Origin: Micavibrio sp.
GTDB taxonomy: Bacteria > Pseudomonadota > Alphaproteobacteria > UBA9219
Reading direction: 5' to 3'
DNA: 64,000 bases
Assembly (NCBI GenBank): GCA_020718105.1
Contig: DYDA01000006.1
Span: 5,442 to 69,441, forward strand
Made by a program: the position numbers and the translations under genes
Notes under the pieces: generated by a model
Databases searched by the model: none
Seen by the model: only the letters and a program-made list of their open reading frames with translations
Told to the model about the DNA's origin: nothing
In this document: in pieces, positions 44,110-62,590 of the stretch
Layout: every line of letters begins with the position of its first letter
Numbering within the stretch: the stretch's first letter is position 1

Positions 44110-44380
44110 GTTTCCTCCTATAGAAAACCCCGCGAGACAGGTGTCAGCGGGGCGGTTGATCGGATAGGTTCAGTACTATTGGTTTTTTATTTGTCCTTCT
44201 TCCTCCCCATCAGTTTGCGGATATGAAGCCTTTGGACGTAGCGGATTGCGAGCTTTTCCGATGTCCAAAGAATGATGGCCGTGCCGGGGACGATGACGCG
44301 AAAGATGCGCAAGCGGCGCGGCCTGACCAAGAACGTGTCGGTTTGGATGAAGGTTTTCTTTCTCATGAGCCTCCTTTCAC

Positions 44381-45136
44381 TTAGTGGTTGGACAACTCTG
44401 GCCACCTCACAAAGAACCAGCGCGGGAACAGATGGCCCCAGACCTCCCAATCGACAATAGCTGCCTCTGGCCAGCCTTTCTTTTGCGCGGCGGGGCGGAT
44501 CGGTACAGGGATACTACTGGATTTTTTCTCTATTGCCGTTTTGGTGGGCGTTAACTTTGTGCCTTTGGGTTTAGATGACGCAGACGGTTTGGCCGTTGAC
44601 GATCTCATTTTTGCTCGCGTTGATCGCTTCGTCCGTGCGCTACTTAATTCGCGCTTGCTAGGTTTCTTGCCCTGTCTTGGTTCAGTGCGTTTCAAACCAA
44701 GCTTGGCTTCCATCTCCTGTGCGACTTCTTTTGACTTCTTCCAGTGGTAGCCGGGCCAGACAGGCGTTCCCGTCATCAGACTGACGCGGTTCCAGATAAC
44801 GTGAAAGTGCTGCCGTCCGTCCTTGACGTGTTCGACAATCACGCGCTGGTGATGGAACATCTTGTAGCCATAGGCTTCTTCGCATCGATCCACGATGGCC
44901 ATCAGTTGCTTGTCGGTCAGATGCTCGCCCTTCATCGGGTTGATGCTGATATGGTGAAGCGGCTTTGTGCATTTTGTTTTGCCAGCAACCACCCACATAT
45001 TGTGAAACGCATCATCCAGATTATGGGCACTGGGGTCACTTAGTTCGACAAGGCGCGTCTTCTCGTTCTTGCCTTTCTCCTTCATATAGTCCGCAGCGGC
45101 CCTATAGCCGCCCCGTGTGTGGCTTTTGATAATCAT
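44381..45136 (-). CDS. MobA/VirD2-like relaxase (short form) with basic Lys/Ser-rich tail
   Basis: Relaxase His motif QHFHVIWNRV; RGGYRAAADYM N-terminal region; 251 aa. Confidence 0.7.
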   Translation of the reverse strand: MIIKSHTRGGYRAAADYMKEKGKNEKTRLVELSDPSAHNLDDAFHNMWVVAGKTKCTKPLHHISINPMKGEHLTDKQLMAIVDRCEEAYGYKMFHHQRVIVEHVKDGRQHFHVIWNRVSLMTGTPVWPGYHWKKSKEVAQEMEAKLGLKRTEPRQGKKPSKRELSSARTKRSTRAKMRSSTAKPSASSKPKGTKLTPTKTAIEKKSSSIPVPIRPAAQKKGWPEAAIVDWEVWGHLFPRWFFVRWPELSNH

Positions 45137-45188
45137 TCCGGCGCGTTGCCTTCGGACAAGGCTTGCAACACGGCCTGATGTGCCGTCA

Positions 45189-45701
45189 TCAACGAACGGG
45201 ATATCTCATCGCAACCATGGAGGTCCCCTGTCCGTTGGTTACTGTTCCGGCGTTCAGTTGCTTGGCAATCTGGTTGAGGTTTGTGCCCTGCTTAGTCAGT
45301 TCAAAATGAACCTTGTGGAGCAGACTGTTCCGTTCAGGGTCAAGGAGCGGAGATTTCAAAAGCATGAGCCGAGCATATTGGCTGGTCGAGAGATTGTTTC
45401 TTTCAGCTTGCTCGGCCAGCCGTTCCCGTTCCTGCAAATCCAGCCTTATGCCTAGGTGTACGGATCGAGCTTTCTCGGGCTTTAGCCCGCTGGAGTTATG
45501 TAAAACGGCGGAGCGTTTCACATAACTCTCAACTTGCGCAGAGCTTTTAGCTTTCTGGGTAGACTGTTTCACAGCCGGATTGTCTGACAATGAAGGGGAA
45601 GACTTGAGGGCTTCATAAGCCCGCGCCGGACGGCAAATGCCTAACGCGGCTCGTCGGAACTGTTCACGCACGGGTAGTGTCTTGGCACCGTCTTGTGACA
45701 T
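45189..45701 (-). CDS. mobC: MobC-family plasmid mobilization relaxosome protein
   Basis: MobC-like motif LTKQGTNLNQIAKQLNAG; 170 aa; directly upstream of the relaxase. Confidence 0.8.
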   Translation of the reverse strand: MSQDGAKTLPVREQFRRAALGICRPARAYEALKSSPSLSDNPAVKQSTQKAKSSAQVESYVKRSAVLHNSSGLKPEKARSVHLGIRLDLQERERLAEQAERNNLSTSQYARLMLLKSPLLDPERNSLLHKVHFELTKQGTNLNQIAKQLNAGTVTNGQGTSMVAMRYPVR

Positions 45702-46530: not shown

Positions 46531-47199
46531 ATGGTATCCTTCATGGACATTACAGGCAGACAAATACGCGCCGCACGCGGCCTCCTCGGGTGGAAGATGG
46601 AAGACCTAGCCGATAAGGCAGGCCTGACCCGTATCACCATTCGCCAAATTGAAAACGAAATAGTACAGCCTCAAGAAAAGACGCTGGCCAAGATTTACGC
46701 AGTTTTCGATAAATTCGGCGTTGAGTTCCTGCCCGACGAAGGCATGCGTATCCGCAAACAGGACACCCGCATTTATTCCGGCAAGGCTGGCTATCGGCAG
46801 TTTCTTGACCATGTCTATGAAACGCTTAAGGGTGGCGGTCATATACGCCAGTTCAACTTTAGTGACATGCGCTATCTCCCCAACGAAGAGACCTTCGTCG
46901 CGAATCACTTCCTGCGTATGGGGTCGATCAAGGGACTGGATTCAAAAGTGCTTGAAATCGGGGATGAAACTAAACACCCCCTCGCCTATTGCTCTTATCG
47001 CAAGAATGATAAAAAGTTCAAGGATATGGCCCCTTGGTACCTTTATGGCGACTATCTTGTTTTGTCGCTGAATGAAAGCGGCGGAAAACGGGAGTTTATC
47101 ACCATTCGCTCCAAACTGCTGGCTGAGCGTTATCTGAAAGAGTTCGATATCTTCTGGAACATGGCAACTTCTGAGAAAAAGAAGAAGGGCACCAAATGA
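46531..47199 (+). CDS. XRE-family HTH regulator with C-terminal domain of unknown function (paralog A)
   Basis: N-terminal Cro/C1-type HTH (IRAARGLLGWKMEDLADKAGLTRITIRQIE); paralogous to 62591..63292; 222 aa. Confidence 0.8.
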   Translation: MVSFMDITGRQIRAARGLLGWKMEDLADKAGLTRITIRQIENEIVQPQEKTLAKIYAVFDKFGVEFLPDEGMRIRKQDTRIYSGKAGYRQFLDHVYETLKGGGHIRQFNFSDMRYLPNEETFVANHFLRMGSIKGLDSKVLEIGDETKHPLAYCSYRKNDKKFKDMAPWYLYGDYLVLSLNESGGKREFITIRSKLLAERYLKEFDIFWNMATSEKKKKGTK

Positions 47200-48350
47200 C
47201 AGACTTTGAACATTGGCACGAGCAACCCGGCGGTCTTCATCTTGCGGTTGTCCCTTTCAATAAGGACAATCCTGACCATCGGGAGGCAGTTGCCAATGTC
47301 ATGCACGCCTCGATCCAAACCATTGCACAAGTCCATGGAGCCTCTTTCAGTGAAAGAGGCTTTCGCAATAATATGCGGGCCCTTTATCGTGGCGATCTTG
47401 AAGTTGATCTTTATCTGGCCAAGTGGGAGGTTTGCCAACCAAAGTCCAAGCCCATCTATCTTGGCGCAGCTATCAAGTGGAAAACGGCTGGCTTTGACGA
47501 GATGGGCAATATCCATGGCGGCATCTATGACGAGGATATTTGTATCCACAAACCACAATTGCGCCAGCTCATCAAATTAAAGCCGAGGGATAAGGCGTTT
47601 CCGAAACGAAGCCTTGCCGAGTGTTTCGATCAAATCAAGCTTCAGGATTTATTGCAGCAAGACGATCTCTGGTATCGTTTTGGCGAGATCGATCCCGACA
47701 ACACAACGATGATGCGCTCGTTGCTTCAGAATGATGCCTTGATTGGAACGCCACAGGATAGTGCTGTTCTTGAGTTCAAGCGTTTTCCCAATAATCTCTT
47801 GGATACAATCCCGATGGATGTCGAGATTATGGATATGGGCCGCGCTTCAACGCCCAATATCTTCGCCACACGATTAAGTGACGGCATTATTGACATTCGT
47901 TTTGCTGTAACCAAGGGGCAAGCCACAGCCGCCGGAAAGCCCCGCCCCGATATGCGCCCATGGCATAACGGAAATCTGCCAGAAGACCCCGCAATTTTGC
48001 ACGCCGCCCTCGCCTCCTCCATGAACGCGATTCAGAATAAGATTTTGGATAGCGAGTGGGGATCGCAGAGCGAGGCGATTGCATCCAATCCCATCATCCC
48101 GCTTCGCGCTCTTCGCCCTGAAGTTTTGAGAGACTTGTGCACGTCCTGCGCAAGTGATCTAGTCGCCAGCCCGGAAACACGGGGCAGCACCTTTATCCCG
48201 CCCATACCGGAAGCCCACGTTTTTGTCATCAAAGACAAGCCGATGCTCGATGGCCTTAAAGCCATCGGAGCCCAAAACCGCACCTTCGGCGGCAAACTCA
48301 TGATGCCAGGGGTGAATGAGATTAGATCGCGACAAGGACTAATTCTGTAG
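47196..48350 (+). CDS. hypothetical protein co-transcribed with XRE regulator A
   Basis: 384-aa ORF with ATGA start/stop overlap with the XRE gene; no recognizable motifs. Confidence 0.6.
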   Translation: MTDFEHWHEQPGGLHLAVVPFNKDNPDHREAVANVMHASIQTIAQVHGASFSERGFRNNMRALYRGDLEVDLYLAKWEVCQPKSKPIYLGAAIKWKTAGFDEMGNIHGGIYDEDICIHKPQLRQLIKLKPRDKAFPKRSLAECFDQIKLQDLLQQDDLWYRFGEIDPDNTTMMRSLLQNDALIGTPQDSAVLEFKRFPNNLLDTIPMDVEIMDMGRASTPNIFATRLSDGIIDIRFAVTKGQATAAGKPRPDMRPWHNGNLPEDPAILHAALASSMNAIQNKILDSEWGSQSEAIASNPIIPLRALRPEVLRDLCTSCASDLVASPETRGSTFIPPIPEAHVFVIKDKPMLDGLKAIGAQNRTFGGKLMMPGVNEIRSRQGLIL

Positions 48351-48870: not shown

Positions 48871-51528
48871 TTATTTGCGAAACTGCGCTGATAGTCCAGA
48901 GAGAGTTGTGTTGGGCCTAACAGCATCGTGAGGCACGAGAACGTATGTCCACGGCTTACCACCGTTCTCCATCTCGTGCTTCGTGGCCGCTTCGCACCAC
49001 TTGATGGCGGCACGGGCTTTTTGTTGAACGGCGTCCGCTTCAACTTCATCGGCACGTTTGGTTTCGATGAGGAACTTCTCTCCGTCTGTTTCTACGACAA
49101 AATCCGGTTCATATCCTTCGTTATCATTTGTGTAGATTTTGACGTCATTTCGGAGGGGTTTGAACCATTTGAGGACTTCCTTGCTATCTTCGAGTAAAAT
49201 GGCCATCTGGCGCTCGGTGTCTGAATCAAACTTCTGCTGCGGGTAAAGGCACTTTGAAAAGCCCTCAAATACCATCCCGCGTATATCCGAAACATTGGCG
49301 AGGGTCTGCCGAAAGTTTCTGACTTTTTCTCCCGCATCAATTGTCACCGCGCCCATTTTAGGCTGTTCAAAACCACGTGTGACTGAGGCCTGAAAATCCG
49401 TATAGCCAAGTTTTACATGCTCATTCATCTGCGCGTGGATTAAATCGGCGAGTTTCGTGCGGTAAAATTGGACAACATTTTTGGTTTTATCGGCATCCTT
49501 ACCCAAATATGAAGCGACATACGCCACCATCTGCCCCGCCAGCTTGTAAAGCAGGTCTGCGTGATCGTCATAAGAGACGTCATCCTTATCAATCAAAACG
49601 GATACGACGTAATCTTCTAAACGCGCTTCTTGCCCTATAGCTTCTCCCTTGGCCATTTCTTCGCGTTCAGAGGTGCGTAAATGCTGGATGAGGATTTTAT
49701 CGTCCACTGGCTGAAGGTGCGGAAGGTCTTTTGTGTTTAGATCAAAATCCGTGAACTCATAGCTATTTGATCCAATAGGTGTCACGGTCACGCGCGGAAT
49801 ATCGATGGTGTTATCGATATAGGCCTTAATTTGCCTCCGCACTATGTCTTCAACATTTGGCTTGTCCGCGATAACGTCAAGTGAGCCTTGTGCGGGCGTC
49901 ATTTTTTCCATCACGCGAGCAACCATTTTTTCCTGAACCTCTGGGTTCAAAAGGTTCCGTGAGCTTGGTAAATGTTCTTGTTCTTTAATCGCCTCAAAAA
50001 CGGCTCTTGCAATAGGCCGCTCAGCTTCAGTAAATAAAGGCTGTTGCTCTGGTTTTGTGCCTTCGCCAGAAATTATCCGTTCGATATTCGACTTAATCTC
50101 AACCGCCTGTTTGGGCTTTGCAGCAATGTCCTTACCAATTATTACACCAGTGCGGATGATAGAATGCTGATCGTTGGCCTCCTTGATAATTTCGTCAAAG
50201 CGGTCATGGGCAACGATGGTTAAACGATCCACGGCAGCAACGCCTGTGCGCTTGCCATAGGGCAAACGAAGGCCGCGCCCAATGGACTGCTCGACTAAAG
50301 TGCGTGAGTTGGCTGCACGCAAAGGCACAATGGTATAAAGGTTGGTAACGTCCCATCCTTCCTTCAGCATATTGACGTGAATGACGATTTCGGTCGGCTC
50401 ATTGGGATCTTCGACGGCAAGCAAACGTTGAACGGTCTCATCCTTTTCCTCGCCACGCTGGGCTGAGTGAACGGTGATAACGCGATCCTTGTAACGACCA
50501 TCAAAAAAGGCATCTGACTTGATCATCGCCATCAAGTTTTCGGCATGCGTCGTGTCCTGCGCCACCACAAGGATGAACGGTTTCACATAAGGTCGTGAAT
50601 TATTGTCGGCATAGACCTTCAACTCAGCCTTTGCGTTTTCATGAATGCAAATGGCGTCTTCCAGCTTGATCTTTTCGAGCTCGTCTTCCGTAAAATTCTT
50701 CGGGTTGAAGTTCTCACGCGTCGCAACCGCCGGTTCCTTCACATAGCCATCTTCCATCGCCTTATAAAGGGGGTAGCCGTAAATGACGTTTTTGAAAGGG
50801 ATGGCGTTCTTCCCGTTTTCAATTTGAGGCGTCGCGGACAGTTCAAGGCCGATAATAGGGTTCAGTTCGTTTAGTGCCCTGATGCCCGCCGAGGCGCGAT
50901 AACGGTGTGATTCATCCATCAGCAACACGAGATCGTCTAGTTTAGAAAGATATTCAAAATAGCTTTCGCCCAGATATTCCGAAAGCCGCTTGATGCGGGG
51001 TGCTGCACCTCCGCGCGTTTCGGAATTGATCTTGGAGATGTTGAAGATGTTGATATGGATGTTGTCAGCCTGTCCGTACAAATCCGTGCCGCGAATACCG
51101 CGCCCGCTTTCATAATTATCGCCCGTGATGACTTCCGGCGGCGTGATGGCAAGCTCGGCAATGCCTTGAAAGACGTATTTTGGCGTGTTGGGCGTAAAGT
51201 CGGCGATGAGCTTGTTATAGATCGTCAGGTTTGGTGCCAATACAAAGAAGTGTTTCATCCCATGCGCAAGATGCAAATAAGCAATGAATGCGCCCATAAG
51301 CCGAGTTTTGCCGACGCCCGTTGCAAGGGCAAAGCAGAGAGATGGAAAGTCTCGCTCAAAATCCTCAACACTCGGAAACTCGGACTTGATGGTCTCAAGA
51401 GCGGCGACCACGTCGCGATCTTTGTCGAGAGAGATGATCTCTGTCACACGCGCAAGAATCTCAAGCGACTCCTTCTGCGGTGTGCGGAGGGACAGACGGT
51501 TCGAAATGGCGTTGAGATGACGATTCAT
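48871..51528 (-). CDS. res: type III restriction enzyme Res subunit (SF2 helicase plus C-terminal PD-(D/E)xK nuclease)
   Basis: Walker A ATGVGKT, DEAH-like LMDESH, C-terminal PDFVVETDGEKFLIETK nuclease motif; 885 aa. Confidence 0.9.
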   Translation of the reverse strand: MNRHLNAISNRLSLRTPQKESLEILARVTEIISLDKDRDVVAALETIKSEFPSVEDFERDFPSLCFALATGVGKTRLMGAFIAYLHLAHGMKHFFVLAPNLTIYNKLIADFTPNTPKYVFQGIAELAITPPEVITGDNYESGRGIRGTDLYGQADNIHINIFNISKINSETRGGAAPRIKRLSEYLGESYFEYLSKLDDLVLLMDESHRYRASAGIRALNELNPIIGLELSATPQIENGKNAIPFKNVIYGYPLYKAMEDGYVKEPAVATRENFNPKNFTEDELEKIKLEDAICIHENAKAELKVYADNNSRPYVKPFILVVAQDTTHAENLMAMIKSDAFFDGRYKDRVITVHSAQRGEEKDETVQRLLAVEDPNEPTEIVIHVNMLKEGWDVTNLYTIVPLRAANSRTLVEQSIGRGLRLPYGKRTGVAAVDRLTIVAHDRFDEIIKEANDQHSIIRTGVIIGKDIAAKPKQAVEIKSNIERIISGEGTKPEQQPLFTEAERPIARAVFEAIKEQEHLPSSRNLLNPEVQEKMVARVMEKMTPAQGSLDVIADKPNVEDIVRRQIKAYIDNTIDIPRVTVTPIGSNSYEFTDFDLNTKDLPHLQPVDDKILIQHLRTSEREEMAKGEAIGQEARLEDYVVSVLIDKDDVSYDDHADLLYKLAGQMVAYVASYLGKDADKTKNVVQFYRTKLADLIHAQMNEHVKLGYTDFQASVTRGFEQPKMGAVTIDAGEKVRNFRQTLANVSDIRGMVFEGFSKCLYPQQKFDSDTERQMAILLEDSKEVLKWFKPLRNDVKIYTNDNEGYEPDFVVETDGEKFLIETKRADEVEADAVQQKARAAIKWCEAATKHEMENGGKPWTYVLVPHDAVRPNTTLSGLSAQFRK

Positions 51529-51533
51529 AGGGA

Positions 51534-52025
51534 TTATCCGATGTTAAGAAGTTCGCGCCGCTTGGAGTCAAAAGTATTAAACACATTCCGATTTACTGAT
51601 TTCAGTTGTTTGACAGAACGCTCAACAGATTCCATATACGAACTTTGGTCTGTGGGATGTCCTTCTTCAAGTGAAGTAAGCATATGAGACAAACAATTTT
51701 GCAAATCTGTATCATCTGGAAGCAATCCTTGGAGGGCTTTGATCGCTGCATTTGTACGAAAGGCTAGGTCGTAAGTTGGTTGATATATTTGAACCGAGCT
51801 TATCTGCTGCATAAAGTCAGATATAATATTAAAATGTGAGGCCAGCAGTTCAGCCTGTTGAATTCTTCGAGATTTGTTTGCTTCTTGAGCGGAACGTTCT
51901 GCCGCATCGCTTGAACGTTTAGAATCTCGTTTTGCCCACACGGAAATGCCTGTTCCGGTCGCGGACATACACAGGGCGAGAAAAGAGAGCCAATTTGCTA
52001 TATCGTCACTCATCGTCGCCTCCAA
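51534..52025 (-). CDS. hypothetical protein with N-terminal TM helix, between the mod remnant and res
   Basis: 163-aa ORF, 5-nt gap to res start, 20-nt overlap with the mod-fragment stop. Confidence 0.5.
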   Translation of the reverse strand: MEATMSDDIANWLSFLALCMSATGTGISVWAKRDSKRSSDAAERSAQEANKSRRIQQAELLASHFNIISDFMQQISSVQIYQPTYDLAFRTNAAIKALQGLLPDDTDLQNCLSHMLTSLEEGHPTDQSSYMESVERSVKQLKSVNRNVFNTFDSKRRELLNIG

Positions 52026-52914
52026 ACAAAGAGGGTTCGGAGGATTTGGCTTTTGCCTTGGCCTTAGCTTTCAGTTTTCGCGGGGTTGGGATATCGACTT
52101 GCTCCTCTTCGGCCAAGGGAAGGTTTTGGACGTTGAGGCTGTAATCGTCGTGGCCCCATTCGCATTTGGTCAGCACGGCGCGGGGGATTTTGCGCAGGGT
52201 TAGGTTGGGGAAGGCCTCGGCTTTGCCGCGAAACGCCGAGCAGCAGATGAGGAGGCTTCGATTGTCGCCCACTTCCTCGGACAGGGCGGCGAGTTGCGCC
52301 TGATCTAACGTTTGGGTGGTGACATAGATGAAATCCGTCTCGGTCGAATGCCCTTGCTGCCAATAAACGCTGTCACTCGGCGCATAGGTGAAGCCCATCA
52401 GCTTGCACATGGCCTGCGTCAGCATGACCGCGTTGTATTCCTTGTTGATGACAGCCTGGCTGTACTTGTCCATCGTGATGAGGGATGGTGCGAGCGCGAA
52501 ATACCGAAAACCGCCGCCGCCTTTCCACGCTGCCGCTTCGGTAATGCCACCTTTGTCCTCGCCATCAATGACTTTCTTGAGGCGCGGGATGATATGAGTA
52601 TGGCAATGCTCGCCAAGCTCAATCATAATCCAACGTCGCCTCATTTTATGGGCGACAGCACCCGTTGTGCCGGAACCAGCAAAGGAGTCGAGGACAAGGT
52701 CGTTAGGGTTGGTAGCAATATGAAGAAGTGTATGAATTAGACGTTCAGGTTTGGGTGTTGAAAAGACATCATTGCCAAAAAGAGCTAACATTTCCTTCAT
52801 GGCATCTTGATTGTGTCCAGCTAGTGTATGTTTCCATACCCGTCCCCCAAACAAGCCCTGTTCGTACGAGAGCACCGCAAGTTGCCACATATTCGTCTTC
52901 CGTGGAAAAGACAC
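52006..52914 (-). pseudogene. mod: truncated type III DNA methyltransferase (Mod), C-terminal fragment only
   Basis: Contains motif I region (VFSTPKPERLIHTLLHIATNPNDLVLDSFAGSGTTG) and a Mod-like C-terminus. The N-terminal DPPY motif and target-recognition domain are absent. Its 5' 146 nt overlap the upstream ORF in another frame. Confidence 0.65.
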
Positions 52915-53428
52915 CAGATTCTATCGTTTCCTTCTGTGTGCGCCTATAAGCCTCGGTCGCAGCCCTACTGATTTCTTTTGTGTCTAATTGATTGGCTTTT
53001 TCTTTCTCGATTTGCTCATTGAAAGATTTGTGCAGCTTTCCTAAGACAATGATCTCTTCATATCGCAGAGAATCGATAATGTCCGCATAATATAAAAACT
53101 CATCGGCTCTCAATACTTTTGCTGCCTTTTGCCCTGCGATAATGCGCGCAAGAAGTCGAAGATTTGTTCGCGCGGTTCCTTCCTGTGCAGCTCGCATGTA
53201 GCGATAAACGATTGCTGCCACTTCATCAACCTCACAGGCTTCCCATATATCTTTTTCTCCCGCGCTGATTTCTAAGAGTAAAATTTCTCTGGCTGCACTC
53301 AGTCGTATTTTGAAAAGGTTTTGAACCGCAATTCCTGCTACAGAGCCGCCAAAAACATCGAAAGCCCCTGCGATGTCTCCAATAAGGGCGCTATAATACT
53401 GCGGAAGATGTATCGTTTTATCTTCCAT
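52769..53428 (-). CDS. hypothetical protein, last gene of the SNF2 operon
   Basis: 219-aa ORF; start overlaps the MBL gene stop by 11 nt; no recognizable motifs. Confidence 0.55.
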   Translation of the reverse strand: MEDKTIHLPQYYSALIGDIAGAFDVFGGSVAGIAVQNLFKIRLSAAREILLLEISAGEKDIWEACEVDEVAAIVYRYMRAAQEGTARTNLRLLARIIAGQKAAKVLRADEFLYYADIIDSLRYEEIIVLGKLHKSFNEQIEKEKANQLDTKEISRAATEAYRRTQKETIESGVFSTEDEYVATCGALVRTGLVWGTGMETYTSWTQSRCHEGNVSSFWQ

Positions 53429-54371
53429 AGGAAGGCCTGCTTTTATAAATGTTTCTTAGGCTATCTAGGTTCATCGAAAGAAAATGATGCTTTTTGATGG
53501 CAAAGTCCTTGTACGAAGACACTTTTGTTGAGTTTGATATCAAATTGTAGACCCTAAAGACACTATTGTGCGGGGGTAAAGATTGGGCAATTATGTCGCC
53601 TGTTTTTGTTGTAAAGATCGGGATATCTAGGTCGAACAAACGATCTCGAACATCTTGTCTAGGATGTTCAAACTGATTGTCATAATTGCTGCTGCATACA
53701 GCCAGTTGAGGTCGGACACGTTCCAAAAAGTTTTTTGAGTTAGTAGGACAGTCTGCTCCATGATGAGCTAAAATAAGGATGTCAATTTCTCTCTTGAAAA
53801 TGCCACATCCCCTGAGGCGAGAGCCAATGTTCACATCTTCAACGTCGCCAAGACTTGCAACATTAAAACAGCCCTCACGAAACACCTTGACTGTCGAATT
53901 GTCATTGGCTTTTTCGAAAAAGATCTTAGGGCCATAAAAAACGTTTCTGTATCCAAGTTCTTCTGCTGATTTCAATCCATTAATGTAGTTTGGGTTTACA
54001 CACACACAACTCACAGGGGTGCCATCTATGGTTCCTTTGGCTTCATAATTCTCGATGGCTTTTTGGCATGCCTTGCCATTATCACTTTCGGGCAAATATC
54101 CGGGGTATTCAACCTGTTTGGGTTTTAGCGTTTCAAGAATACTTTTGAGATCAGAAAAAGTGCAGTGATCTTGATCCCAGCTGGTAATATGTAAGCAATC
54201 AATAAACTGCTTACCGCAAAGTTCCATTTCTTGGTGTATATTTGCGCGGTTAACGTCATTCAGTCGCGCTTCAATCAAGGTAAACTTTCCTGCACCAAAG
54301 TATGAAAAGGAAGAACCCGCTTGCCCCAGCTGGTATGCGCGAAAGCGAGTGACAATTTCTTGTGCGGCCAT
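53418..54371 (-). CDS. MBL-fold metallo-hydrolase related to the ComEC/Rec2 beta-lactamase domain
   Basis: ITSWDQDHC (S/H-x-D-x-DH) and LAHHGADCPTNSKNFLERVRPQLAVCSS resemble ComEC motifs (HADQDHIGG / KVAHHGSKTSS...FL..V.P..A..S); 317 aa. Confidence 0.7.
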   Translation of the reverse strand: MAAQEIVTRFRAYQLGQAGSSFSYFGAGKFTLIEARLNDVNRANIHQEMELCGKQFIDCLHITSWDQDHCTFSDLKSILETLKPKQVEYPGYLPESDNGKACQKAIENYEAKGTIDGTPVSCVCVNPNYINGLKSAEELGYRNVFYGPKIFFEKANDNSTVKVFREGCFNVASLGDVEDVNIGSRLRGCGIFKREIDILILAHHGADCPTNSKNFLERVRPQLAVCSSNYDNQFEHPRQDVRDRLFDLDIPIFTTKTGDIIAQSLPPHNSVFRVYNLISNSTKVSSYKDFAIKKHHFLSMNLDSLRNIYKSRPSYGR

Positions 54372-54862
54372 TATAACTCTTCCTTTCTGCCTCCAGAAGT
54401 TTTAGCGGCTCGAGACCTTTCTATTCCCCAAACGGCCTCAGAAACTTCTTCAAGTTTTTTAATAAATTTATCGACGTTGAGGCCAGCAACGAAAGCAAAG
54501 GCATAAAACCCAATTTCGCTTGCATCAGGCTGGATGCTGGATTCCAGCACGATCAACCCTGCCTTAAGAAACAGATAACTCGCACCGCCACAAGTAAGAC
54601 TCGCGATTGGGCGTAAGAAATACCATACCTGCCACCTGGAGTCCCATTGATCGTAAACACAGACGTTCAAATAGACTCCTCTCAAACAATAGAGGAAGCC
54701 ACCAAGTCCACCAGAAAATGCACAGATAAGCCCAACTTTGTATGGAACTAAAAGGGGTTCATGACCTGCTAACACAAAAGCAATCCCTGCAAGGTTAGCG
54801 ACGGCACATAAGACAAGGTAAAAGATAATAACTACAATCATTCGAGCCCCCACCTCGCGCAA
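54371..54862 (-). CDS. small integral membrane protein (3-4 predicted TM helices)
   Basis: Hydrophobic 163-aa ORF; overlaps SNF2 3' end by 25 nt and abuts the MBL gene start. Confidence 0.65.
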   Translation of the reverse strand: MREVGARMIVVIIFYLVLCAVANLAGIAFVLAGHEPLLVPYKVGLICAFSGGLGGFLYCLRGVYLNVCVYDQWDSRWQVWYFLRPIASLTCGGASYLFLKAGLIVLESSIQPDASEIGFYAFAFVAGLNVDKFIKKLEEVSEAVWGIERSRAAKTSGGRKEEL

Positions 54863-57846
54863 AACAGCGGTTCAATCTCATGCCTGCTGTCCTGCAATTG
54901 TTTTTCTAGTTGATTAATAAGCTCTTCGCGTCTTGCGTCAACTTTGTCTTGGCTGGTGAAAAGTTCGTGCCGCTTTTGTGAGCGGCGTTTTTCAAAGGCA
55001 GCTTTTTGTTTTTGAAACGCCAGCTTTTCCGCTAGACTTATCAATTGCTTAGACTGGCGGTCTGCCTCGCGGATGTCGCGGTCAAGTTGCTTGAGTTCAA
55101 GCTCTAGCCCCGTCTTCAGGTCTTCGGCCCAGCGGTCGAGCTTATCCAGCTCTTCCTCAAAATAGTGGTGATTGCTGGCTTCCGATTCGTTCAAAAGCAA
55201 GGTCATCCGGTTCTGGCGGGCGGTTTCGATGATGGCTGCATAAGGACATGAGCGGAAATCTTCCGAGCACGATGCTGAAAGGAGAAGCAGCTTCTCGCCA
55301 AACTCTGGTAGGAGGATCACGCCGCTTTCATTGCAGGCGGTGAAGATGAGAGATTCCGTTTCCTCAAACGTATTGATCGTCAGCTTGTCCAGCCAGAGCC
55401 AGCCTCGTTTGCCGCACTGTTCGTCCAGCAACGCAACTTTGTGCGGATGAGAAGAAAGATCAAACGTCAACGTCACGAGAGGAGTCTCGATATCACGCCC
55501 CTTTTGGATTACACGCTCGCCCATAAGATCGGACAGGCGATAAGGATAGCCTGTGACAGGAACCTTGGCCGTCCCCTTATGGAGCCGCTCCAATGGATCG
55601 ATGGCAGCTACAGCTTTTGTTTCCAGATAATGATAAATGGGAGTGCGGTCGCCTTCGCTGGGGCGTTCGCCTTTGGCAATAAAATCGGGATCGTCTCCGA
55701 AAATTAGTTTCTCGTCGTTGAAGACGAAGGTTCCATCGTAGATGAATTTCGTCAGCTCCCAAAAATGATGGGTCACGATATCAAGGCGCTGTTTGGTTGC
55801 TTCCATACTGAATTTCAAATGTCGTGTGACATCCTCGTCGAAATGCTCGAACAACATATTGCGCGTTTCGGCTATGCGGGCTTGGATTGGCTCTTCCATT
55901 TCGGATTGAAGGCGCGCAAAGGCTTCTTCAATTTCCTTGGGGTGGCGGCAGGTTTCAAAGATATCCAAAATACGCTTTTCAAAATCAATGCCGGACTCAA
56001 CGCGGCCTAGCACCTCATCTGATGATCCAAAGACACCGTCAAAAAGCTGAAACTTCTCTTTCAGTAGTTCATAGATACGCTGGTCAGCGAGATTGTCTTG
56101 GTTCAGGAAGTTAATGACGACCACGTCGTGCTTTTGGCCATAACGATGGCATCGGCCAATGCGCTGCTCAATGCGCTGAGGGTTCCAAGGCAGGTCGTAA
56201 TTGACAATCAAAGAACAGAACTGAAGGTTGATGCCTTCGGCGGCAGCTTCAGTGGCGATCATCACCTCGGCATGATCCCGGAAGAAATCAACAAGCGCCA
56301 TACGCATATCGACATTCTTGGAGCCGGAGATACGGCCTGTGGTGGCGTTCTTCTCCTGCCACATGCCGTAGATGTCTTTGGAAAGCTCATCCGTATTCTG
56401 TCCATTAAAAGTCACGACCTTGCCGCGAAAGCCGTTGTCTTCAAGATATTCTTTCAGATAACGCTGGGTGCGGCTGGATTCCGTGAAAACGAGAGCTTTG
56501 CGCGCGCCGCCCAACACACCCATACGGGAAAAACCGGATTGAAGTGCGGATAAAAGCGCTTTGGCTTTGGTCTCTATTTTGATGGAACGGGCAAGGGCGG
56601 CAAAGCCTTCGATCTGTTTGATCTCGTAGTTCAGTTTTTCAATGTCGATGTCGCTGTGGTTGGGTTGGGTGGCAGCGTGTTCTTCTTCCTCTGCTGCCTC
56701 GGCATATTCGATATCGATATCCTGTCCGAATATAAACGCGCCGCGCAAGTTCAGTTTCTCTTCTTTGCGGGTCTCTCGCATTTTCTCAAGGCGCTCTTTG
56801 ATGGTTTGCAACGTGCCAACCAATGCATAAGCTGACGATGCTAGAAGCTTGCGGATAACGAGAACGACCAGCTTTCTCTGTGCCCACGGAATAGCATAGG
56901 TATCTTGCTGGAGGAGGAAGTCAGAGACCTCGTCATAAAGTCTTTGTTCTTCTGCTGACAAACTAAACGGCTGCAGCATGGCTTCGCGTTTCGTATAACG
57001 GATATACTCCAGAACTTGCCGCCGAAGCGTGCGCTTAACAAAAGGCGCGAGGCGTGATTTGAGGTCGTCGATATTTGGGTTATTATTTCCATAAGCGGAT
57101 TTGAACGTATCAATGCCACCAAAGATCCTGTCATCAATCAATGAGGCAAGGCCGTAAAGCTCCAGAAGGGAGTTTTGCAGCGGTGTTGCTGTCAAAAGCA
57201 CTTTTTTGTGATCAGCCAGAGCCGCCTGAATCGTGCGGCCCATTTTGTTGTCTTTTTTGAAGAGATTTCGCAGCTTGTGCGCTTCATCGATCACAACCAT
57301 ATGCCATGGCATTGCTTTAAGTGCGTCGGCGTAACGATTGGCAAACTGATAAGAGATAATCACAACGCCTTTGAAGTCAAAAGGATCGCTGCCACTCTGC
57401 TGTCGTTCTGTGTAATTGCTGCTTTCAAGCACAAGGGTTGGAAGGTTGAATTTTTCTTCAAGCTCTATTGACCATTGGCGGCGCAGAACAGCGGGGCATA
57501 TGACAACAAGCCGTCGCTTATGCTCTGCCCAAAGTTGGCAAAGCAAGATACCAGCCTCAATAGTTTTTCCAAGGCCGACCTCATCGGCCAGCATAACGCC
57601 TTTGGAAAGCGGCGAGCGTAGTGCAAAGAGAGCCGCTTCAATTTGGTGTGGATTTAAATCTACGGCAGCATCAAAAAGCGAGGTGGTAAGGCGATCAACA
57701 ACGGTGGCGGACTTCTTTATCGAAAGCTCATGTGCAAAGTATTTCGCGTGATAGGGAGTGATGGACGTCTTTGTTCCTTTGTTCTCCTGCCAAAAAGGTT
57801 CTGTTTCTGCTTTCATTCGTCCAGTATCCAGTCCCAATTTCCACAC
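54838..57846 (-). CDS. SNF2-family helicase/ATPase with ~400-aa C-terminal extension including a coiled-coil
   Basis: SNF2 N-domain (DLNPHQIEAAL, LADEVGLGKT, DEAH-like VIDEAHKLRN) and helicase C-domain (GGEGINLQ..., QRIGRCHRYGQ); 1002 aa. Confidence 0.9.
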   Translation of the reverse strand: MWKLGLDTGRMKAETEPFWQENKGTKTSITPYHAKYFAHELSIKKSATVVDRLTTSLFDAAVDLNPHQIEAALFALRSPLSKGVMLADEVGLGKTIEAGILLCQLWAEHKRRLVVICPAVLRRQWSIELEEKFNLPTLVLESSNYTERQQSGSDPFDFKGVVIISYQFANRYADALKAMPWHMVVIDEAHKLRNLFKKDNKMGRTIQAALADHKKVLLTATPLQNSLLELYGLASLIDDRIFGGIDTFKSAYGNNNPNIDDLKSRLAPFVKRTLRRQVLEYIRYTKREAMLQPFSLSAEEQRLYDEVSDFLLQQDTYAIPWAQRKLVVLVIRKLLASSAYALVGTLQTIKERLEKMRETRKEEKLNLRGAFIFGQDIDIEYAEAAEEEEHAATQPNHSDIDIEKLNYEIKQIEGFAALARSIKIETKAKALLSALQSGFSRMGVLGGARKALVFTESSRTQRYLKEYLEDNGFRGKVVTFNGQNTDELSKDIYGMWQEKNATTGRISGSKNVDMRMALVDFFRDHAEVMIATEAAAEGINLQFCSLIVNYDLPWNPQRIEQRIGRCHRYGQKHDVVVINFLNQDNLADQRIYELLKEKFQLFDGVFGSSDEVLGRVESGIDFEKRILDIFETCRHPKEIEEAFARLQSEMEEPIQARIAETRNMLFEHFDEDVTRHLKFSMEATKQRLDIVTHHFWELTKFIYDGTFVFNDEKLIFGDDPDFIAKGERPSEGDRTPIYHYLETKAVAAIDPLERLHKGTAKVPVTGYPYRLSDLMGERVIQKGRDIETPLVTLTFDLSSHPHKVALLDEQCGKRGWLWLDKLTINTFEETESLIFTACNESGVILLPEFGEKLLLLSASCSEDFRSCPYAAIIETARQNRMTLLLNESEASNHHYFEEELDKLDRWAEDLKTGLELELKQLDRDIREADRQSKQLISLAEKLAFQKQKAAFEKRRSQKRHELFTSQDKVDARREELINQLEKQLQDSRHEIEPLFCARWGLE

Positions 57847-58721: not shown

Positions 58722-61700
58722 CTACGAAAGTTCAAGAGCAAGGATATTGGGCGTCCGCTCTGGATCAGCGTGCCTTAACAGGCCATAGCCTATTCCCGCC
58801 ATGCCGCACATCAGTCCCGGCGTCGTTGCTCCGCCCGGCATGTCACAGTCCCATCTTTCTTTTTTCCGATAGTCAGCCATGATAGCGGATAGCATGGCGC
58901 AGGCCCTGTCATGATCTCCTGTAGCAAGAAAGATTTCCGAGTTGCCAAGATTTCCGTGACACAGGCATTGATTGCTGATGAGGCCCTGCTTCCATGTCGC
59001 CTCGCAAGCCAAACGCACACGCTCGTCGCAAAAATCCTTTCCAAGAACGTCCGGCATTTTCAGAAGAGCAAGACCGATGCCCGGAGCGCCATAGCACCAA
59101 TGACAGGTTGGAGCACCGCCGCGCGCGTCTACCCATGTTTGTTGTTTCTCATCGAAAAAACTTTGTTCATAGGCAAACGCTTGTTGCGCAAGCCCTGTCC
59201 ATTTTTCTTCTTTCGTATACTGCGCCCATTCGGCCAAGGCCCACGCAATTCCCGTGACACCGTGAGAAAGTCCGCCCAGTCTCTTTTCTTCCGTTTGAAC
59301 AGTCTTCCACGTGACGCCAAATTCTTGCTTCTCAGATGAAGCTGCCAATCGGTCAGCAGCGGCAGCGGCAACCTGAAGCGCTTCCGTCGATCCGTTCTGG
59401 CGATAGACACCCATTGCGACAAGAAGAACACCAGCAGCGCCGTAAATAAGATCGTTGGATTCATCTTTTTTGACCAATCTTTCTAACACAGCAAAGGCGT
59501 TTTTTCTCCCACTTCCCTCATCGCAATTCAAAGCGTCCGACAAAAGGCTGTCCGCGTAAATCAAGCCAGCGATTCCGTTAAACGCTCCGCAGCCATGCCC
59601 GCGAGAGCGGTCGGCAAAAACTTTCCGAATGGTGGCAAGAGCGTCCGTGGCTATAGCCTTGAATCTCTCGTCACGCGTCTGTTTATACAATTGCCCCATG
59701 AAAAGGCCAATGCCCGGCGTTCCATCATAAAGAGATAGCCTTGGAACGTCAGCCGTGTAGCTTTCTTTATCGACCGGTAACAAACCGGACCATATCGGCG
59801 TATCATTGACGTAATAGGCGCTGTCAAGCAACGATTGGCCTATCTTTGATGCCTCATAAATAAGCTCATCTGAGGAAGTTTTCTTTCTCTTACAAAAAGA
59901 AATAGGCCTGTTTGGGTTTTCTTCTTTCTCCGCTGGCATTGTACTTTTGAGTGCCATACGGATGGTTTCCGTTTGCGGAACCAACAATTTTTCGAGAGAT
60001 CGCAAACGCCTTTTAACAGACTGCATTCCCGTGCAAGCAAAAAAGTTCTTGTGAGGTCTTCCTGTTGACGAAAAAATATCTTTTGAATCCGGTGTTGTCC
60101 AGAAATAGGGCACGTCCCCATTCCACAAATCCTCGACCTCGCTAGGGATGATGGATTCAAGATGGTGCGCCAACAGGACGCCCGCCCAAAGTTCGCCGCC
60201 GATCATCATATCGCTTTCGACGGCATCGCCCAAAACAGAGGGGTGTGCCATAGACTGGAGAATATGAACATAGTCCCGCGTGTTTCTCGTTACGTATCGA
60301 ACGGGGACGGATCGAAAGACATTCAAGATGCTCCGTGGGCCAAGCAGAAAGACCCGATGTTTCTTGAATGTGGAAATGGCGGACTCAAAGCCAGCAATAA
60401 TCTCCCCAAGATGCTCATACGCCCGGCACGGGATGCCATCGACATATGGAATATTCTTTTCCTGTGGCATAGAAACTTTTTGCATCACAAACCGCGCGTC
60501 GTCCCTGCCGATATTTTCCATCATCAGCGCTTCCGTCGGCGCTGGCTGTTCGCCACAGGCACCAATGGCGCTTAGATCGTACACACCTCCAGGCCCCATC
60601 AGGCGATATGGCAGTAAGCCGGTTCTGAATAAAAGGTCTTCAAAGGCCTGAAGGTAGCATTGCTGAAAAAACGCGCTCTTTCCTGAGGGCCTTATTGAGC
60701 GGTCAAACATTACCTCAACATCAACGAGATAAGGATCGCCCCCAGAAGCGATCAAGTTTTCATGGTGCAAATCCGTAATTCCCAGCAACCACGAAATCGC
60801 AAGGAGAGACCCAAGCTTCTTGTAATATATGGGAATGTCGGAAGGTAACGCATCCGTGTTCGCCTCGACAAACGAGCAATAGCCATAGGTCCCACAATCA
60901 AGAACCGAAACGGTTTTGGGCGCAGGCGCGTCCGAGCAAGAAGCAAACCAATTGATGAGCGCATTATAAGCGACATCTGCGGCAAGCGAGCGCGGCTTAT
61001 AAACAAGGATGCCTTCCGCGAAGTGAAGTATAGCCACGACATGTCCGCCGCAATGTGCATCGCCCGTGCCCCAGTGTATCGACTGAAGGGTTCTTAAAGA
61101 TAACCCCAAAGAAGACTCAACTGTCGCTTTATCTTTTGCCAAACGTTCCAGTGCCTTTACGGAAGCATTAATTGTGTTCGCAGCAGTCGTGGAGACCAAG
61201 CGCCACAAAACGGGGTATTTACCCCAAAACCTACGTTGGTTTTCTTTCTCGCCAAGGGAACCCACAAAAGCGCCGAACCTCTCTTCCGGAGTTTGCGAGG
61301 ATTTGTTCTTCCGCTTGATTCGAAAAAGATTCGCCTCCATCGCCATACTTGGAAGCATGAGGTTCGCTAATCTTTGGGAAAAATAAATATCATATTCTGC
61401 CAGCAACCTTTCACTGTCCGAGCCAAGCCCAACGGCCTGCAAGGCATTGATGGCTTGAACCATACGTTTCATAGCATGGGAGAATAACGGCGCGCATAAG
61501 GCCTCAAAGCCATATCCGGATTCTCTCTCATGCTCGCTGGAAAAAGCGCCAGCTTCTTCTGAAATCATTTCAGGGTCACACCAATACGGAGCAATCTCAC
61601 CGTATAGTGCGTCGGAAGCAAAACGGCTTTCATTCAGAACGCCGCCTATCCTTTCAAGCGCTCCGCCCATCATGCCTACGTGTTTGCGCAGAAGATTTTT

Positions 61701-61847
61701 CTTCCGTTGGAAATAACGGTTGCTCCACCATTTTATCTTGGGTTCCGTTGCTGCGGCGACATAGTCTGATAAATCGTTTTGATGCCCAGTTTGCGCAAAT
61801 CGCTCGGATAGTGATAGTGCACGGCTTAAAATGGTTTCTTCGATCAT
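58722..61847 (-). CDS. lanM: class II lanthipeptide synthetase (LanM-like: N-terminal dehydratase domain plus C-terminal LanC-like cyclase)
   Basis: Kinase-like catalytic loop ITDLHHENLI (DxHxxN) and DVEVMFD in the N-terminal half. LanC-like GxxG repeats and CHG motif in the C-terminal half (GTPGIGLFMGQLY, GAAGVLLV, GVTGIAWAL, WCYGAPGIGLALL, CHGNLGNSEIF, GMAGIGYGLL). 1041 aa. Confidence 0.85.
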   Translation of the reverse strand: MIEETILSRALSLSERFAQTGHQNDLSDYVAAATEPKIKWWSNRYFQRKKNLLRKHVGMMGGALERIGGVLNESRFASDALYGEIAPYWCDPEMISEEAGAFSSEHERESGYGFEALCAPLFSHAMKRMVQAINALQAVGLGSDSERLLAEYDIYFSQRLANLMLPSMAMEANLFRIKRKNKSSQTPEERFGAFVGSLGEKENQRRFWGKYPVLWRLVSTTAANTINASVKALERLAKDKATVESSLGLSLRTLQSIHWGTGDAHCGGHVVAILHFAEGILVYKPRSLAADVAYNALINWFASCSDAPAPKTVSVLDCGTYGYCSFVEANTDALPSDIPIYYKKLGSLLAISWLLGITDLHHENLIASGGDPYLVDVEVMFDRSIRPSGKSAFFQQCYLQAFEDLLFRTGLLPYRLMGPGGVYDLSAIGACGEQPAPTEALMMENIGRDDARFVMQKVSMPQEKNIPYVDGIPCRAYEHLGEIIAGFESAISTFKKHRVFLLGPRSILNVFRSVPVRYVTRNTRDYVHILQSMAHPSVLGDAVESDMMIGGELWAGVLLAHHLESIIPSEVEDLWNGDVPYFWTTPDSKDIFSSTGRPHKNFFACTGMQSVKRRLRSLEKLLVPQTETIRMALKSTMPAEKEENPNRPISFCKRKKTSSDELIYEASKIGQSLLDSAYYVNDTPIWSGLLPVDKESYTADVPRLSLYDGTPGIGLFMGQLYKQTRDERFKAIATDALATIRKVFADRSRGHGCGAFNGIAGLIYADSLLSDALNCDEGSGRKNAFAVLERLVKKDESNDLIYGAAGVLLVAMGVYRQNGSTEALQVAAAAADRLAASSEKQEFGVTWKTVQTEEKRLGGLSHGVTGIAWALAEWAQYTKEEKWTGLAQQAFAYEQSFFDEKQQTWVDARGGAPTCHWCYGAPGIGLALLKMPDVLGKDFCDERVRLACEATWKQGLISNQCLCHGNLGNSEIFLATGDHDRACAMLSAIMADYRKKERWDCDMPGGATTPGLMCGMAGIGYGLLRHADPERTPNILALELS

Positions 61848-61984: not shown

Positions 61985-62452
61985 TTATATTGGGCCTTCG
62001 GGCACTTTGAATTTGCAGCGACCGCTTTGACAATATGCTGTTTGGCAGGCCGTTGTTTGGCAAGCCGTCGTTTGGCAAACCGTTGTTTGGCAAATAGTCG
62101 TGCCACAATTCCCAGTCAGATAAGCCCGTCCAGACATATTCTGCGCGGAACGAACCATGGGCGCTTCGCCAGCAGGATTGATCGTGACAATCTTGACAAG
62201 CTCTTTGCGATCCATGCCCTTCAGCACTTCTTCAAGATGAACCAGATCAACCTTAAGCTCCTTGCCGACCTGCTGCTGCCATCCCTTCCGATTCTTGATG
62301 AAAGGATCGGCCATCTGGGGATTCATCCACATCAATTCGACAAATTGCGACAGAACATCCTCCCCTGAGGCCTTCTCTTTCGCTTTTGCTTTGATCCCAT
62401 CATACTTTCCACGAGTCATAGCGGAAACGGTTTTTCTGTGTCTTTCTAACAT
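61985..62452 (-). CDS. lanA: lanthipeptide-like precursor: NHLP-type long leader plus Cys/Thr-rich repetitive core
   Basis: Start ATG 62452 with RBS AAGGAGGA. Leader resembles nitrile-hydratase leader peptides (ELMWMNPQMADPFIKNRKGW...GKELKVDL). C-terminus NCGTTICQTTVCQTTACQTTACQTAYCQSGRCKF has four CQTT pentapeptide repeats. 137 bp upstream of lanM. Confidence 0.7.
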   Translation of the reverse strand: MLERHRKTVSAMTRGKYDGIKAKAKEKASGEDVLSQFVELMWMNPQMADPFIKNRKGWQQQVGKELKVDLVHLEEVLKGMDRKELVKIVTINPAGEAPMVRSAQNMSGRAYLTGNCGTTICQTTVCQTTACQTTACQTAYCQSGRCKFKVPEGPI

Positions 62453-62590
62453 GAACCAAGTCCTCCTTATATGGTTGTGCGAGCTTTTCATTCTGTGGAG
62501 GGCCGATGCCCGCTTCAATCGGCCTTTTCATATAAAATCTGTAACCGCGTTATATTTTTTCGTTCTTTGTGCTCGAAAAGCAGATAAAAG

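Follow-up and report, generated by a model that had tools for sequence, protein, structure and literature searches.

The question raised by this locus is whether seven genes packed closely on one strand constitute a single defence system, or whether they are separate units that lie within one another. The genes occupy positions 48871-57846 of the window, by which we mean the whole analysed stretch of 64,000 nucleotides from Micavibrio sp. (contig DYDA01000006.1). A first-pass annotation had described them as co-oriented, tightly packed and a candidate composite or novel anti-phage system. ORF listing recovered all seven minus-strand ORFs exactly, and our analysis indicated that the locus is probably a nested composite of separate units, partly decayed, and not one seven-part machine. 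The features are listed below in transcription order, followed by a segment defined by comparison with locus L003, the closest relative, whose proteins are 62-88% identical to those of the window. L001 denotes the window, and a window coordinate equals 64372 minus the L001 position.

54838..57846, minus strand: SNF2-family ATPase, DrmD-like, 1002 aa (likely start ATG at 57816, giving 992 aa)
54371..54862, minus strand: small multi-pass membrane protein (TM163), 156-163 aa, with hydrophobic segments
53418..54371, minus strand: standalone ComEC-type MBL-fold protein, predicted hydrolase (MBL317), 317 aa, from profile and predicted fold
52769..53428, minus strand: 219-aa protein of its own family, 633 homologues
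52006..52914, minus strand: type III Mod remnant, 302 aa, truly homologous part ~52006-52764 (PADLOC MTase_III and L003 alignment)
51534..52025, minus strand: small protein in the interval between Mod and Res, 159-163 aa
48871..51528, minus strand: type III Res, intact, 885 aa (PADLOC REase_III)
52759..53418, no strand: replacement segment, 660 nt (blastn, L001 vs L003)

In transcription order, the ORFs overlapped by 25, 1, 11, 146 and 20 nt and were then separated by a 5-nt gap, exactly as previously described. These overlaps assume the longest possible ORFs; in the public annotation of the identical contig, several genes begin later (992, 156, 264 and 159 aa), and overlaps of 4, 1, 11, 32 and 8 nt remain. 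The 146-nt overlap between the 219-aa gene and the 302-aa ORF is an artefact, because homology to Mod sets in only after the first ~50 codons of the 302-aa ORF, immediately past the stop of the 219-aa gene. A scan for promoters and terminators returned counts at chance level and was therefore uninformative on the transcription unit. The same arrangement is also present in a second assembly (L002). Among E. coli genomes and plasmids, the 9.7-kb region had no megablast match.

In the SNF2 protein, the SNF2-rel_dom (Pfam, 2e-35) and Helicase_C domains were confined to residues ~55-690 of 1002, and a motif scan found GLGKT and DEAH. The protein matched DrmD of PADLOC (PDLC02619) at 3e-204, far more strongly than HmaA (2e-57), and the resemblance to DISARM and BREX logic that had been pointed out was thus borne out by a DrmD-like ATPase. 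However, its score against NCBIfam DISARM_DrmD_b (2e-204, 681 bits) was under the 950-bit equivalog cut-off, and the alignment spanned model positions 21-651 of 868 only, so that the helicase core alone aligned. The homologues are conserved along their full length. Structure prediction had been suggested for the long C-terminal extension, and it showed that the ~310 aa are folded (AF2, pLDDT 84) into an alpha/beta domain and a long coiled-coil hairpin of ~115 residues; a search of this model against the PDB gave no significant match (best E 0.18; RapA E 0.54). The region could not be assigned a nuclease or any other activity, and its 'PD...ETK' string at residue 720 was unsupported.

At the other end of the locus, the full-length Res matched PADLOC REase_III at 4.7e-229 and Pfam ResIII and RE_endonuc. 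It carries the GVGKT, DESH and PDF...ETK motifs of an SF2 ATPase with a C-terminal PD-(D/E)xK nuclease and is 88% identical to the L003 Res along its full length. The small protein upstream of it had been called a second small membrane protein; TM163 is indeed multi-pass, while this one possesses at most one weak N-terminal hydrophobic helix. It has no Pfam, PADLOC or PHROG family match. It shows 29-30% identity to its positional counterparts in L091 and L099 and shares an N-terminal motif with that of L003; its family evolves rapidly and has a hydrophobic N-terminus. The earlier calls of an SNF2 helicase, a ComEC-like MBL protein, a Mod remnant and an intact Res were all supported by Pfam, PADLOC, NCBIfam and AF2, and in PADLOC, as in the earlier reading, the seven genes together matched no named multi-gene system.

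We then examined related loci, in which genes were called with a crude longest-ORF heuristic. A full-length close Mod lay downstream of the SNF2 gene (~960-1000 aa) in 31 related loci, and Res came next after Mod in all 28 of those with room for it. The identities of SNF2, Mod and Res fall in parallel (80/89/87% in L091, 71/72/75% in L092, 62/62/66% in L093 and 55/60/57% in L094). SNF2, Mod and Res are thus a co-inherited triad. By the same heuristic, the slot between SNF2 and Mod was filled in 25 of the 31 loci and that between Mod and Res in 11 of 28, with 65 of the 73 cargo ORFs co-oriented; L093 and five others were free of cargo, with gaps of 23-95 nt. The cargo was rich in known defence families, including AAA_15/AAA_21 ATPases (PtuA, GajA and AriA, i.e., of Septu, Gabija and PARIS type) and HEC-01A (1e-133), together with AIPR, Schlafen, SIR2+HerA, OLD-TOPRIM, GmrSD, DUF4276 and SocA_Panacea. 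Co-regulation of the cargo with the host system is plausible, and translational coupling would permit functional cooperation between the two; the window-type order recurs in L003.

The cargo of the window in the first slot is a pair formed by TM163 and MBL317. The MBL317 family has more than 1500 members (1547 homologues). Its profile matched the ComEC MBL domain at 2.4e-9, and the match to NCBIfam ComEC_Rec2 (1e-8) covered model positions 560-656 of 663, with 34 bits against a cut-off of 190. The AF2 model (pLDDT 91) had the beta-lactamase-like domain of ComEC (9ic4, E 2e-16) as its top PDB match in Foldseek. Across the family, H61, D66, D68, H69, D176, H203, H204 and H236 are invariant. MBL317 therefore has a ComEC-type MBL fold with conserved metal-ligand His/Asp residues and is predicted from its model to be a hydrolase. 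It consists of the MBL domain alone, lacking the multi-pass competence domain and the OB fold of the ComEC channel, and PHROGs gave partial matches to the MBL domain and nothing else. In 61 of 81 MBL loci, the gene had a patatin phospholipase or a member of one of three TM families next to it, and about a quarter of the loci had no recognised partner; housekeeping genes were present in many of the neighbourhoods. TM163 itself had no Pfam or PADLOC match. Its family (cluster C5) adjoins the MBL gene in L003, L068, L077 and L085, and TM163 is the partner of MBL317 and the first gene of the embedded cassette.

A cassette of this TM and MBL type has already been listed as the PADLOC candidate system PDC-M48 (Payne et al. 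2024, bioRxiv 10.1101/2024.01.29.577857). In our literature search, the name did not occur in the main text of any paper and appeared solely in the supplementary table of that study. PDC-M48 comprises a membrane protein of ~165 aa (A) and an MBL-fold protein of ~270-360 aa (B), and it shares with the window pair the two-gene logic in which an MBL-fold hydrolase is encoded after a small membrane protein. The two are also linked through their partners: TM172, a partner family from other MBL317 loci, is PDC-M48A (1e-54), and in 12 loci the gene immediately before MBL317 encodes a true PDC-M48A. In addition, the third cassette gene of L003 is a true PDC-M48B (4e-63), and so is the third cassette gene of L068, a neighbour of MBL317 (2.5e-165). 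However, neither TM163 nor its L085 relative had a PADLOC match to the PDC-M48A models PDLC04670-04672, and MBL317 also pairs with patatin. Against the PDC-M48B models PDLC04673-04677, the MBL317 of the window scored weakly (4e-5, 21 bits) and other members scored 1e-5 to 1e-8. Because a score of 4e-5 for the one protein and no match for the other are unconvincing, the label 'PDC-M48-like' rests on remote similarity and shared partners, and comparison of the sequences suggests that MBL317 is a distinct ComEC-like family and a distant sister of PDC-M48.

The middle of the locus differs from L003. The L003 Mod is intact (559 aa) and possesses DPPY. The fragment in the window matches positions 300-560 of the 575-position PADLOC MTase_III model, and alignment to the L003 Mod identified it as residues ~310-559, i.e., the last ~250 residues. 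According to the motif scan, it retains AdoMet motif I (FAGSG) and has neither DPPY nor the target-recognition region. DNA homology to L003 was lost exactly across the 219-aa gene, where blastn found no homology between the 660-nt segment and the 1825 nt at the same L003 position, which hold the PDC-M48B gene and the first ~930 nt of mod. The 219-aa protein had no match in Pfam, PADLOC or PHROG; its homologues measure ~215-230 aa, and its relatives are located in islands with integrase, Abi or toxin genes. A simple deletion fusing the 279-aa gene of L003 to mod was rejected, as the 219-aa protein bears no relation to the 279-aa one and is complete by comparison with its own family. The 219-aa gene is thus independent cargo that replaced a second MBL gene of PDC-M48B type and the first ~310 codons of mod. 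No second piece of Mod was found within the window, and a functional copy may lie in another part of the genome. As the remaining Mod is predicted to be unable to methylate or recognise DNA, the type III system of the window has most probably lost its activity, despite the intact SNF2 and Res.

How should these observations be combined? The tight overlaps of seven co-oriented ORFs might suggest that all of them form one integrated novel defence system, and L003 does repeat the gene order at six of the seven positions in a locus that no named system spans. However, L003 is a close relative (74-88% identity), and the shared order is therefore weak evidence for one system; moreover, it is the 219-aa gene that is absent from L003, where other genes stand in its place. 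The wider conservation of gene order, which had been proposed as a check, fails beyond L003: the triad of 30 further loci lacked the MBL cassette, its slots being empty or filled by different cargo, and in none of the 80 other genome loci retrieved through the MBL gene was the triad found. Separate conservation of this kind had been named in the first-pass annotation as an outcome that would refute a single system. Together with the loss of DPPY and the recognition region from Mod, these independent distributions make a single seven-gene system highly improbable. Thus, the composite half of the earlier proposal stands, the idea of one novel system falls, and the locus does not reveal a new seven-component mechanism.

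Granting a composite, the TM and MBL pair might still have nothing to do with phages and be an addiction or toxin-antitoxin-like module, or serve DNA processing in mobile elements, while riding in variable regions. Members of the MBL family do occur in ICE/T4SS cargo regions, prophages and integrase islands, and some triad cargo is TA-related (SocA_Panacea, AbiEii); moreover, the MBL domains of ComEC serve DNA uptake and not defence, and PDC-M48 is a prediction only. We consider this unlikely, since the swappable partners (patatin and three TM families) are membrane effectors of a kind typical of abortive infection, and the cassette is repeatedly placed inside or beside modification-based defence systems (L001, L003, L007, L012, L015 and L020), with one example at the variable locus of a P2-like prophage. 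The truncation of Mod, with its catalytic and recognition parts gone, raises the further possibility that the whole locus is a decaying, non-functional relic, and we know of no Res that acts without Mod (EcoP1I/EcoP15I). However, six ORFs are intact and full length, the arrangement is shared with L002, and the window branch shows no excess of change, with a dN/dS of ~0.05 for SNF2, Res and the Mod remnant, which implies either that Mod was truncated recently or that its remnant remains under constraint. A relic of this kind therefore seems rather improbable. The TM and MBL pair stands alone in many genomes and should therefore not depend on Mod, and it may be functional on its own in the window.

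From the observed anatomy, independent distributions, breakpoints and fold of the nested composite, we infer the biochemical activities and the defence role as follows. The host unit would be a type III-like R-M system to which an SNF2 ATPase has been added, and its genes run SNF2, Mod, (small N-anchored protein) and Res. In characterised type III enzymes, Mod recognises and hemimethylates an asymmetric site, and Res together with Mod cleaves after ATP-driven communication between sites. By analogy, an intact Mod of the triad would recognise and hemimethylate such a site, and Res would bind Mod, communicate between unmethylated sites via ATP, and cut, with the SNF2 protein as an extra DNA motor that may be likened to DrmD in DISARM. 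The cargo unit between SNF2 and Mod would be a two-gene module of a small membrane protein and a predicted ComEC-type MBL phosphodiesterase, in which the MBL protein may sense or cut nucleic acid and its partner may damage the membrane in the manner of abortive infection. The third unit would be the 219-aa island gene, whose arrival presumably removed the second MBL gene and the start of mod. More broadly, we suggest tentatively, as a joint proposal that falls a little short of an even chance, that MBL317 with an interchangeable membrane-damaging partner is a widespread two-gene abortive-infection family missed by the PADLOC models, and that SNF2-Mod-Res triads are a further class of modification-based host, offering two dedicated slots for cargo whose exchange can inactivate the triad itself.

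Compared with type III R-M (EcoP1I/EcoP15I; PADLOC MTase_III/REase_III), the Res of the window has the same build of SF2 ATPase and PD-(D/E)xK nuclease, and the Mod of its relatives is likewise a beta-class N6-adenine methylase of ~550 aa with DPPY and FxGxG, encoded directly before Res. Unlike type III R-M, the triad always has a co-inherited SNF2 ATPase gene upstream, two gaps of its operon serve as cargo slots, and the Mod of the window is cut short. DISARM class 1 (DrmD, DrmMI and DrmA/B/C) also pairs an SNF2 helicase, with a similar core, with an adenine methylase, whereas here the DrmD score is below the cut-off and the nuclease is a type III Res. Among the seven proteins and those of the flanking genes, no drmA, drmB (DUF1998) or drmC (PLD) was found, apart from one weak DrmA match from the SNF2 core. 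There was no HmaC-type protein as expected for Hma, and Mod and Res had type III models as their best PADLOC matches. Genes embedded in modification-based defence systems have already been described as 'guilt-by-embedding' (Payne et al. 2024). Those cassettes are likewise co-oriented foreign genes nested in a host operon (Hma, BREX, DISARM and type I R-M), belong partly to the same families (e.g., HEC-01A, Septu, Gabija and GmrSD), and also occur alone elsewhere. Here, in contrast, the cassettes lie within an SNF2-type III triad, a host outside the four of that study, and cargo exchange in the window destroyed the host methylase. If our reading is correct, the locus provides a clear case of defence genes nested in an R-M operon whose host type (SNF2 and type III) lies outside the published embedding survey, as well as an example of cargo turnover destroying a host methylase, and the standalone ComEC-like hydrolases of the MBL317 family, whose phospholipase and membrane-protein partners are swapped, are a tractable candidate for defence testing.

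Other systems were rejected as counterparts. The BREX-related systems of Rakesh and Krishnan 2026 are built around DUF499, a domain missing from this locus, and their paper mentions neither MBL nor patatin; MANTIS/Gao_RL differs in its components, and the relation to the MORC-associated R-M operons (Iyer 2008) is no more than tangential. A last likeness concerns operon type 6a (Iyer, Burroughs and Aravind 2006), in which an E2-E1-JAB triple-module protein is accompanied by a specialised MBL protein. The window holds no E2/E1/JAB gene, and the MBL protein of type 6a corresponds to the PDC-M48B-like family, not MBL317; it is at least 10 other MBL317 loci that recall this operon type, having as neighbours both a second MBL gene and an E2/E1/JAB fusion (Prok-E2_A, ThiF, Prok-JAB).

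A six-frame ORF list reproduced exactly the seven minus-strand ORFs at 48871-57846 and their overlaps, and the domain labels that the first-pass annotation had given from sequence alone were backed by profile searches. In the annotation of NCBI contig JAEMOK010000010.1 (GCA_017973835.1), which is identical to the window, starts lie slightly later and the overlaps remain. The first-pass annotation had also proposed a candidate composite or novel anti-phage system; the observation was confirmed and this interpretation is supported in part. The seven genes make up a composite of nested units, all of known kinds, that has partly decayed. The SNF2 core occupies residues ~55-690 of a 1002-aa protein whose best matches were DrmD models (PADLOC 3e-204), with a score of 681 bits against NCBIfam DISARM_DrmD_b, under the 950-bit cut-off. 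The predicted structure of its C-terminal ~310 residues combines an alpha/beta domain and a long coiled-coil hairpin, and searching with it returned no significant PDB match. A full-length type III Res is encoded by the 885-aa ORF (REase_III 4.7e-229; GVGKT, DESH, PDF...ETK), and the match of the 302-aa ORF was limited to positions 300-560 of the 575-position type III methylase (Mod) model. The 163-aa ORF following SNF2 is hydrophobic, the 317-aa protein (MBL317) showed weak ComEC/MBL matches, and profile searches found no family for the 219-aa ORF or the second 163-aa ORF. Promoter and terminator scans were uninformative, with counts at chance level.

The closest MBL homologue (74% identity) was found on GCA_053526855.1, in a locus (L003) with the order SNF2 (990 aa) - small membrane protein, TM (155) - MBL (317) - 279 aa - Mod (559) - 206 aa - Res (885). 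Blastn revealed that SNF2, TM and MBL are homologous between the two loci, that homology breaks off precisely where the MBL gene stops and restarts just past the stop of the 219-aa gene, and that a second gap covers the small gene before Res, with homology restored afterwards. The 219-aa protein is unrelated to the 279-aa protein of L003, which is a second MBL-fold protein (PADLOC PDC-M48B 4e-63). In the alignment, real similarity of the Mod remnant starts only at residue ~310 of the 559-aa Mod; FAGSG is retained, DPPY is absent, and no further Mod piece is present within the window. It follows from the breakpoints, the Mod alignment and the lack of any other Mod piece that, in the window lineage, the 219-aa gene took the place of a gene of PDC-M48B type and of the first ~930 nt of mod. 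The 146-nt overlap noted earlier was reproduced, but is an artefact caused by an in-frame GTG further upstream. The 219-aa protein itself is complete and belongs to a family whose members measure ~215-230 aa (633 matches), with relatives in integrase, Abi and toxin islands. A second assembly (L002) has the same rearranged arrangement. SNF2, Res and the Mod remnant each gave a dN/dS of ~0.05 (window vs L003 or L091, dS saturated); therefore, either the Mod truncation happened recently or constraint on the remnant persists. The small protein encoded between Mod and Res shares 29-30% identity with the same-position proteins of the related loci L091 and L099 and has an N-terminal motif in common with that of L003; this sub-clade may use it as an accessory that evolves fast.

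The SNF2 protein belongs to a large family in which the entire length is conserved, C-terminal extension included. Five contexts of its relatives were fetched, with genes of related loci called by a longest-ORF heuristic:

L091: SNF2 - 276 aa - SocA_Panacea - Mod - 176 aa - Res
L092: SNF2 - 148 aa - DUF1828 - Mod - Res
L093: SNF2-Mod-Res, directly adjacent
L094: SNF2 - 211 aa - 223 aa - Mod - AAA_15/21 ATPase - DUF4276 - Res
L095: SNF2, then large Mod-like and Res-like genes

Identities of SNF2, Mod and Res drop in parallel across relatives. A metagenome scan contributed 80 further SNF2 loci (the best 80). A close full-length Mod lay downstream of SNF2 in 31 loci, and Res was next in all 28 with enough sequence. 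SNF2 and Mod were 23-95 nt apart in six loci and 0.8-7.7 kb apart in 25, and the Mod-Res gap exceeded 300 nt in 11 of 28. Most cargo ORFs nested in these gaps were co-oriented (65/73), and the cargo was rich in defence families: AAA_15/AAA_21 ATPases (PtuA, GajA, AriA; HEC-01A 1e-133), AIPR, Schlafen, SIR2+HerA, OLD-TOPRIM, GmrSD, DUF4276 and M78+HTH. No MBL cassette was found in the triad loci examined besides the window and L003. This is the 'embedding' phenomenon that Payne et al. 2024 (bioRxiv 10.1101/2024.01.29.577857) reported in Hma, BREX, DISARM and type I R-M systems, in a host type that the paper left unanalysed. In L091, a short fragment (1401-1677) 8 kb upstream of the intact triad joins the last 68 SNF2 residues immediately to the first 26 Mod residues and resembles the remains of a second SNF2-Mod junction that had no cargo. 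Directly behind Res lie the conflict-system genes CTD6, MC2 and AAA_23 in L093 (17344-20781) and a 1002-aa AAA_21/SMC_N protein in L092 (18641-21649).

The module of MBL317 and its membrane partner is the most interesting and least characterised element of the locus. We detected 1547 members of the family, which are ~318 aa long and share invariant His/Asp residues; the AF2 model is confident (pLDDT 91), and its nearest structure is 9ic4, the beta-lactamase-like domain of ComEC (E 2e-16; profile match 2.4e-9). Among the best 80 species-level genome loci found through MBL317, none carried the triad beside it. According to neighbour clustering, 61 of 81 MBL loci have a partner right next to the MBL gene: a patatin phospholipase (33 loci), a ~221-aa TM family (12), a ~172-aa TM family corresponding to PDC-M48A (1e-54; 12) or the window-type ~162-aa TM family (4). 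The neighbourhoods also contained a second MBL family, PDC-M48B (31), whose models MBL317 itself matches weakly (1e-5 to 1e-8), and an E2/E1/JAB fusion protein (18). Other contexts included an ICE adjoining a different SNF2-type III system, and DUF1156-DUF499 systems. In L012, L015 and L020 (about 3600-11800), a TM221 - MBL317 - PDC-M48B cassette stands directly behind the DUF1156 and DUF499 genes of a BREX-related methylation system, another instance of the cassette in or beside a modification-based system. In L009 (8847-10960), a patatin-MBL317 pair is situated in a P2-like prophage between the Phage_GPA replication gene and ogr/portal, a position that serves these phages as a variable defence hotspot. 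L035 (5304-10942) holds a four-gene operon, MBL2 (PDC-M48B-like) - E2/E1/JAB fusion (~770 aa) - patatin - MBL317, with junctions of 0 to -4 nt, which recurs in L026, L031, L053, L058, L074, L089 and others. The E2/E1/JAB neighbours agree with operon type 6a of Iyer et al. 2006, a two-gene operon to which the four-gene form adds patatin and the second MBL. Table S8 of Payne et al. (bioRxiv 10.1101/2024.01.29.577857) lists PDC-M48 as a two-gene candidate, outside the systems tested there.

By analogy, the host triad would act like a type III enzyme with an additional SNF2 motor, and in the window triad methylation and target recognition appear to be lost. No activity of Res without Mod is known, so restriction in the window is most likely off. 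In many genomes TM+MBL stands alone, and its membrane-acting partners are interchangeable; this suggests a putative hydrolase directed at nucleic acid that works together with a membrane effector, in the manner of abortive infection.

The surroundings of the locus in the window comprise the following features.

38875-38949: tRNA-Val
39044-41617: low-GC 857-aa SMC_N/AAA_23 ATPase
41865-42899: tyrosine integrase
43141-44109: ArdC-like antirestriction protein
44381-45136: relaxase
45189-45701: NikA/MobC
58722-61847, minus strand: class II lanthipeptide synthetase LanM (TIGR03897 8e-221)
61985-62518, minus strand: ORF before LanM with a Cys/Thr-rich repeat at its end, …CGTTICQTTVCQTTACQTTACQTAYCQSGRC

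The stretch 38875-45701 has the look of an integrative mobilisable element's backbone, and the seven genes are situated within its island. LanM is the gene immediately upstream of SNF2 and has the same orientation; because of its terminal repeat, the ORF at 61985-62518 is likely a precursor peptide with an unusually long leader, and no transporter was seen within the window. In L003 (3880-4869) and L091 (8597-9586), the two closest intact relatives, a divergent 329-aa WYL/WCX-domain regulator lies upstream of SNF2, a place taken by the LanM genes in the window. Two paralogous HTH_3 proteins of ~222-233 aa are encoded within 46531-48350 (plus strand) and 62591-63292 (minus strand), and a third just past the window end. 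The first HTH_3 gene overlaps by 4 nt that of a 384-aa protein, which has no family match, in a two-gene unit convergent on Res. The HTH_3 protein showed weak PADLOC RmrA matches (~1e-6).
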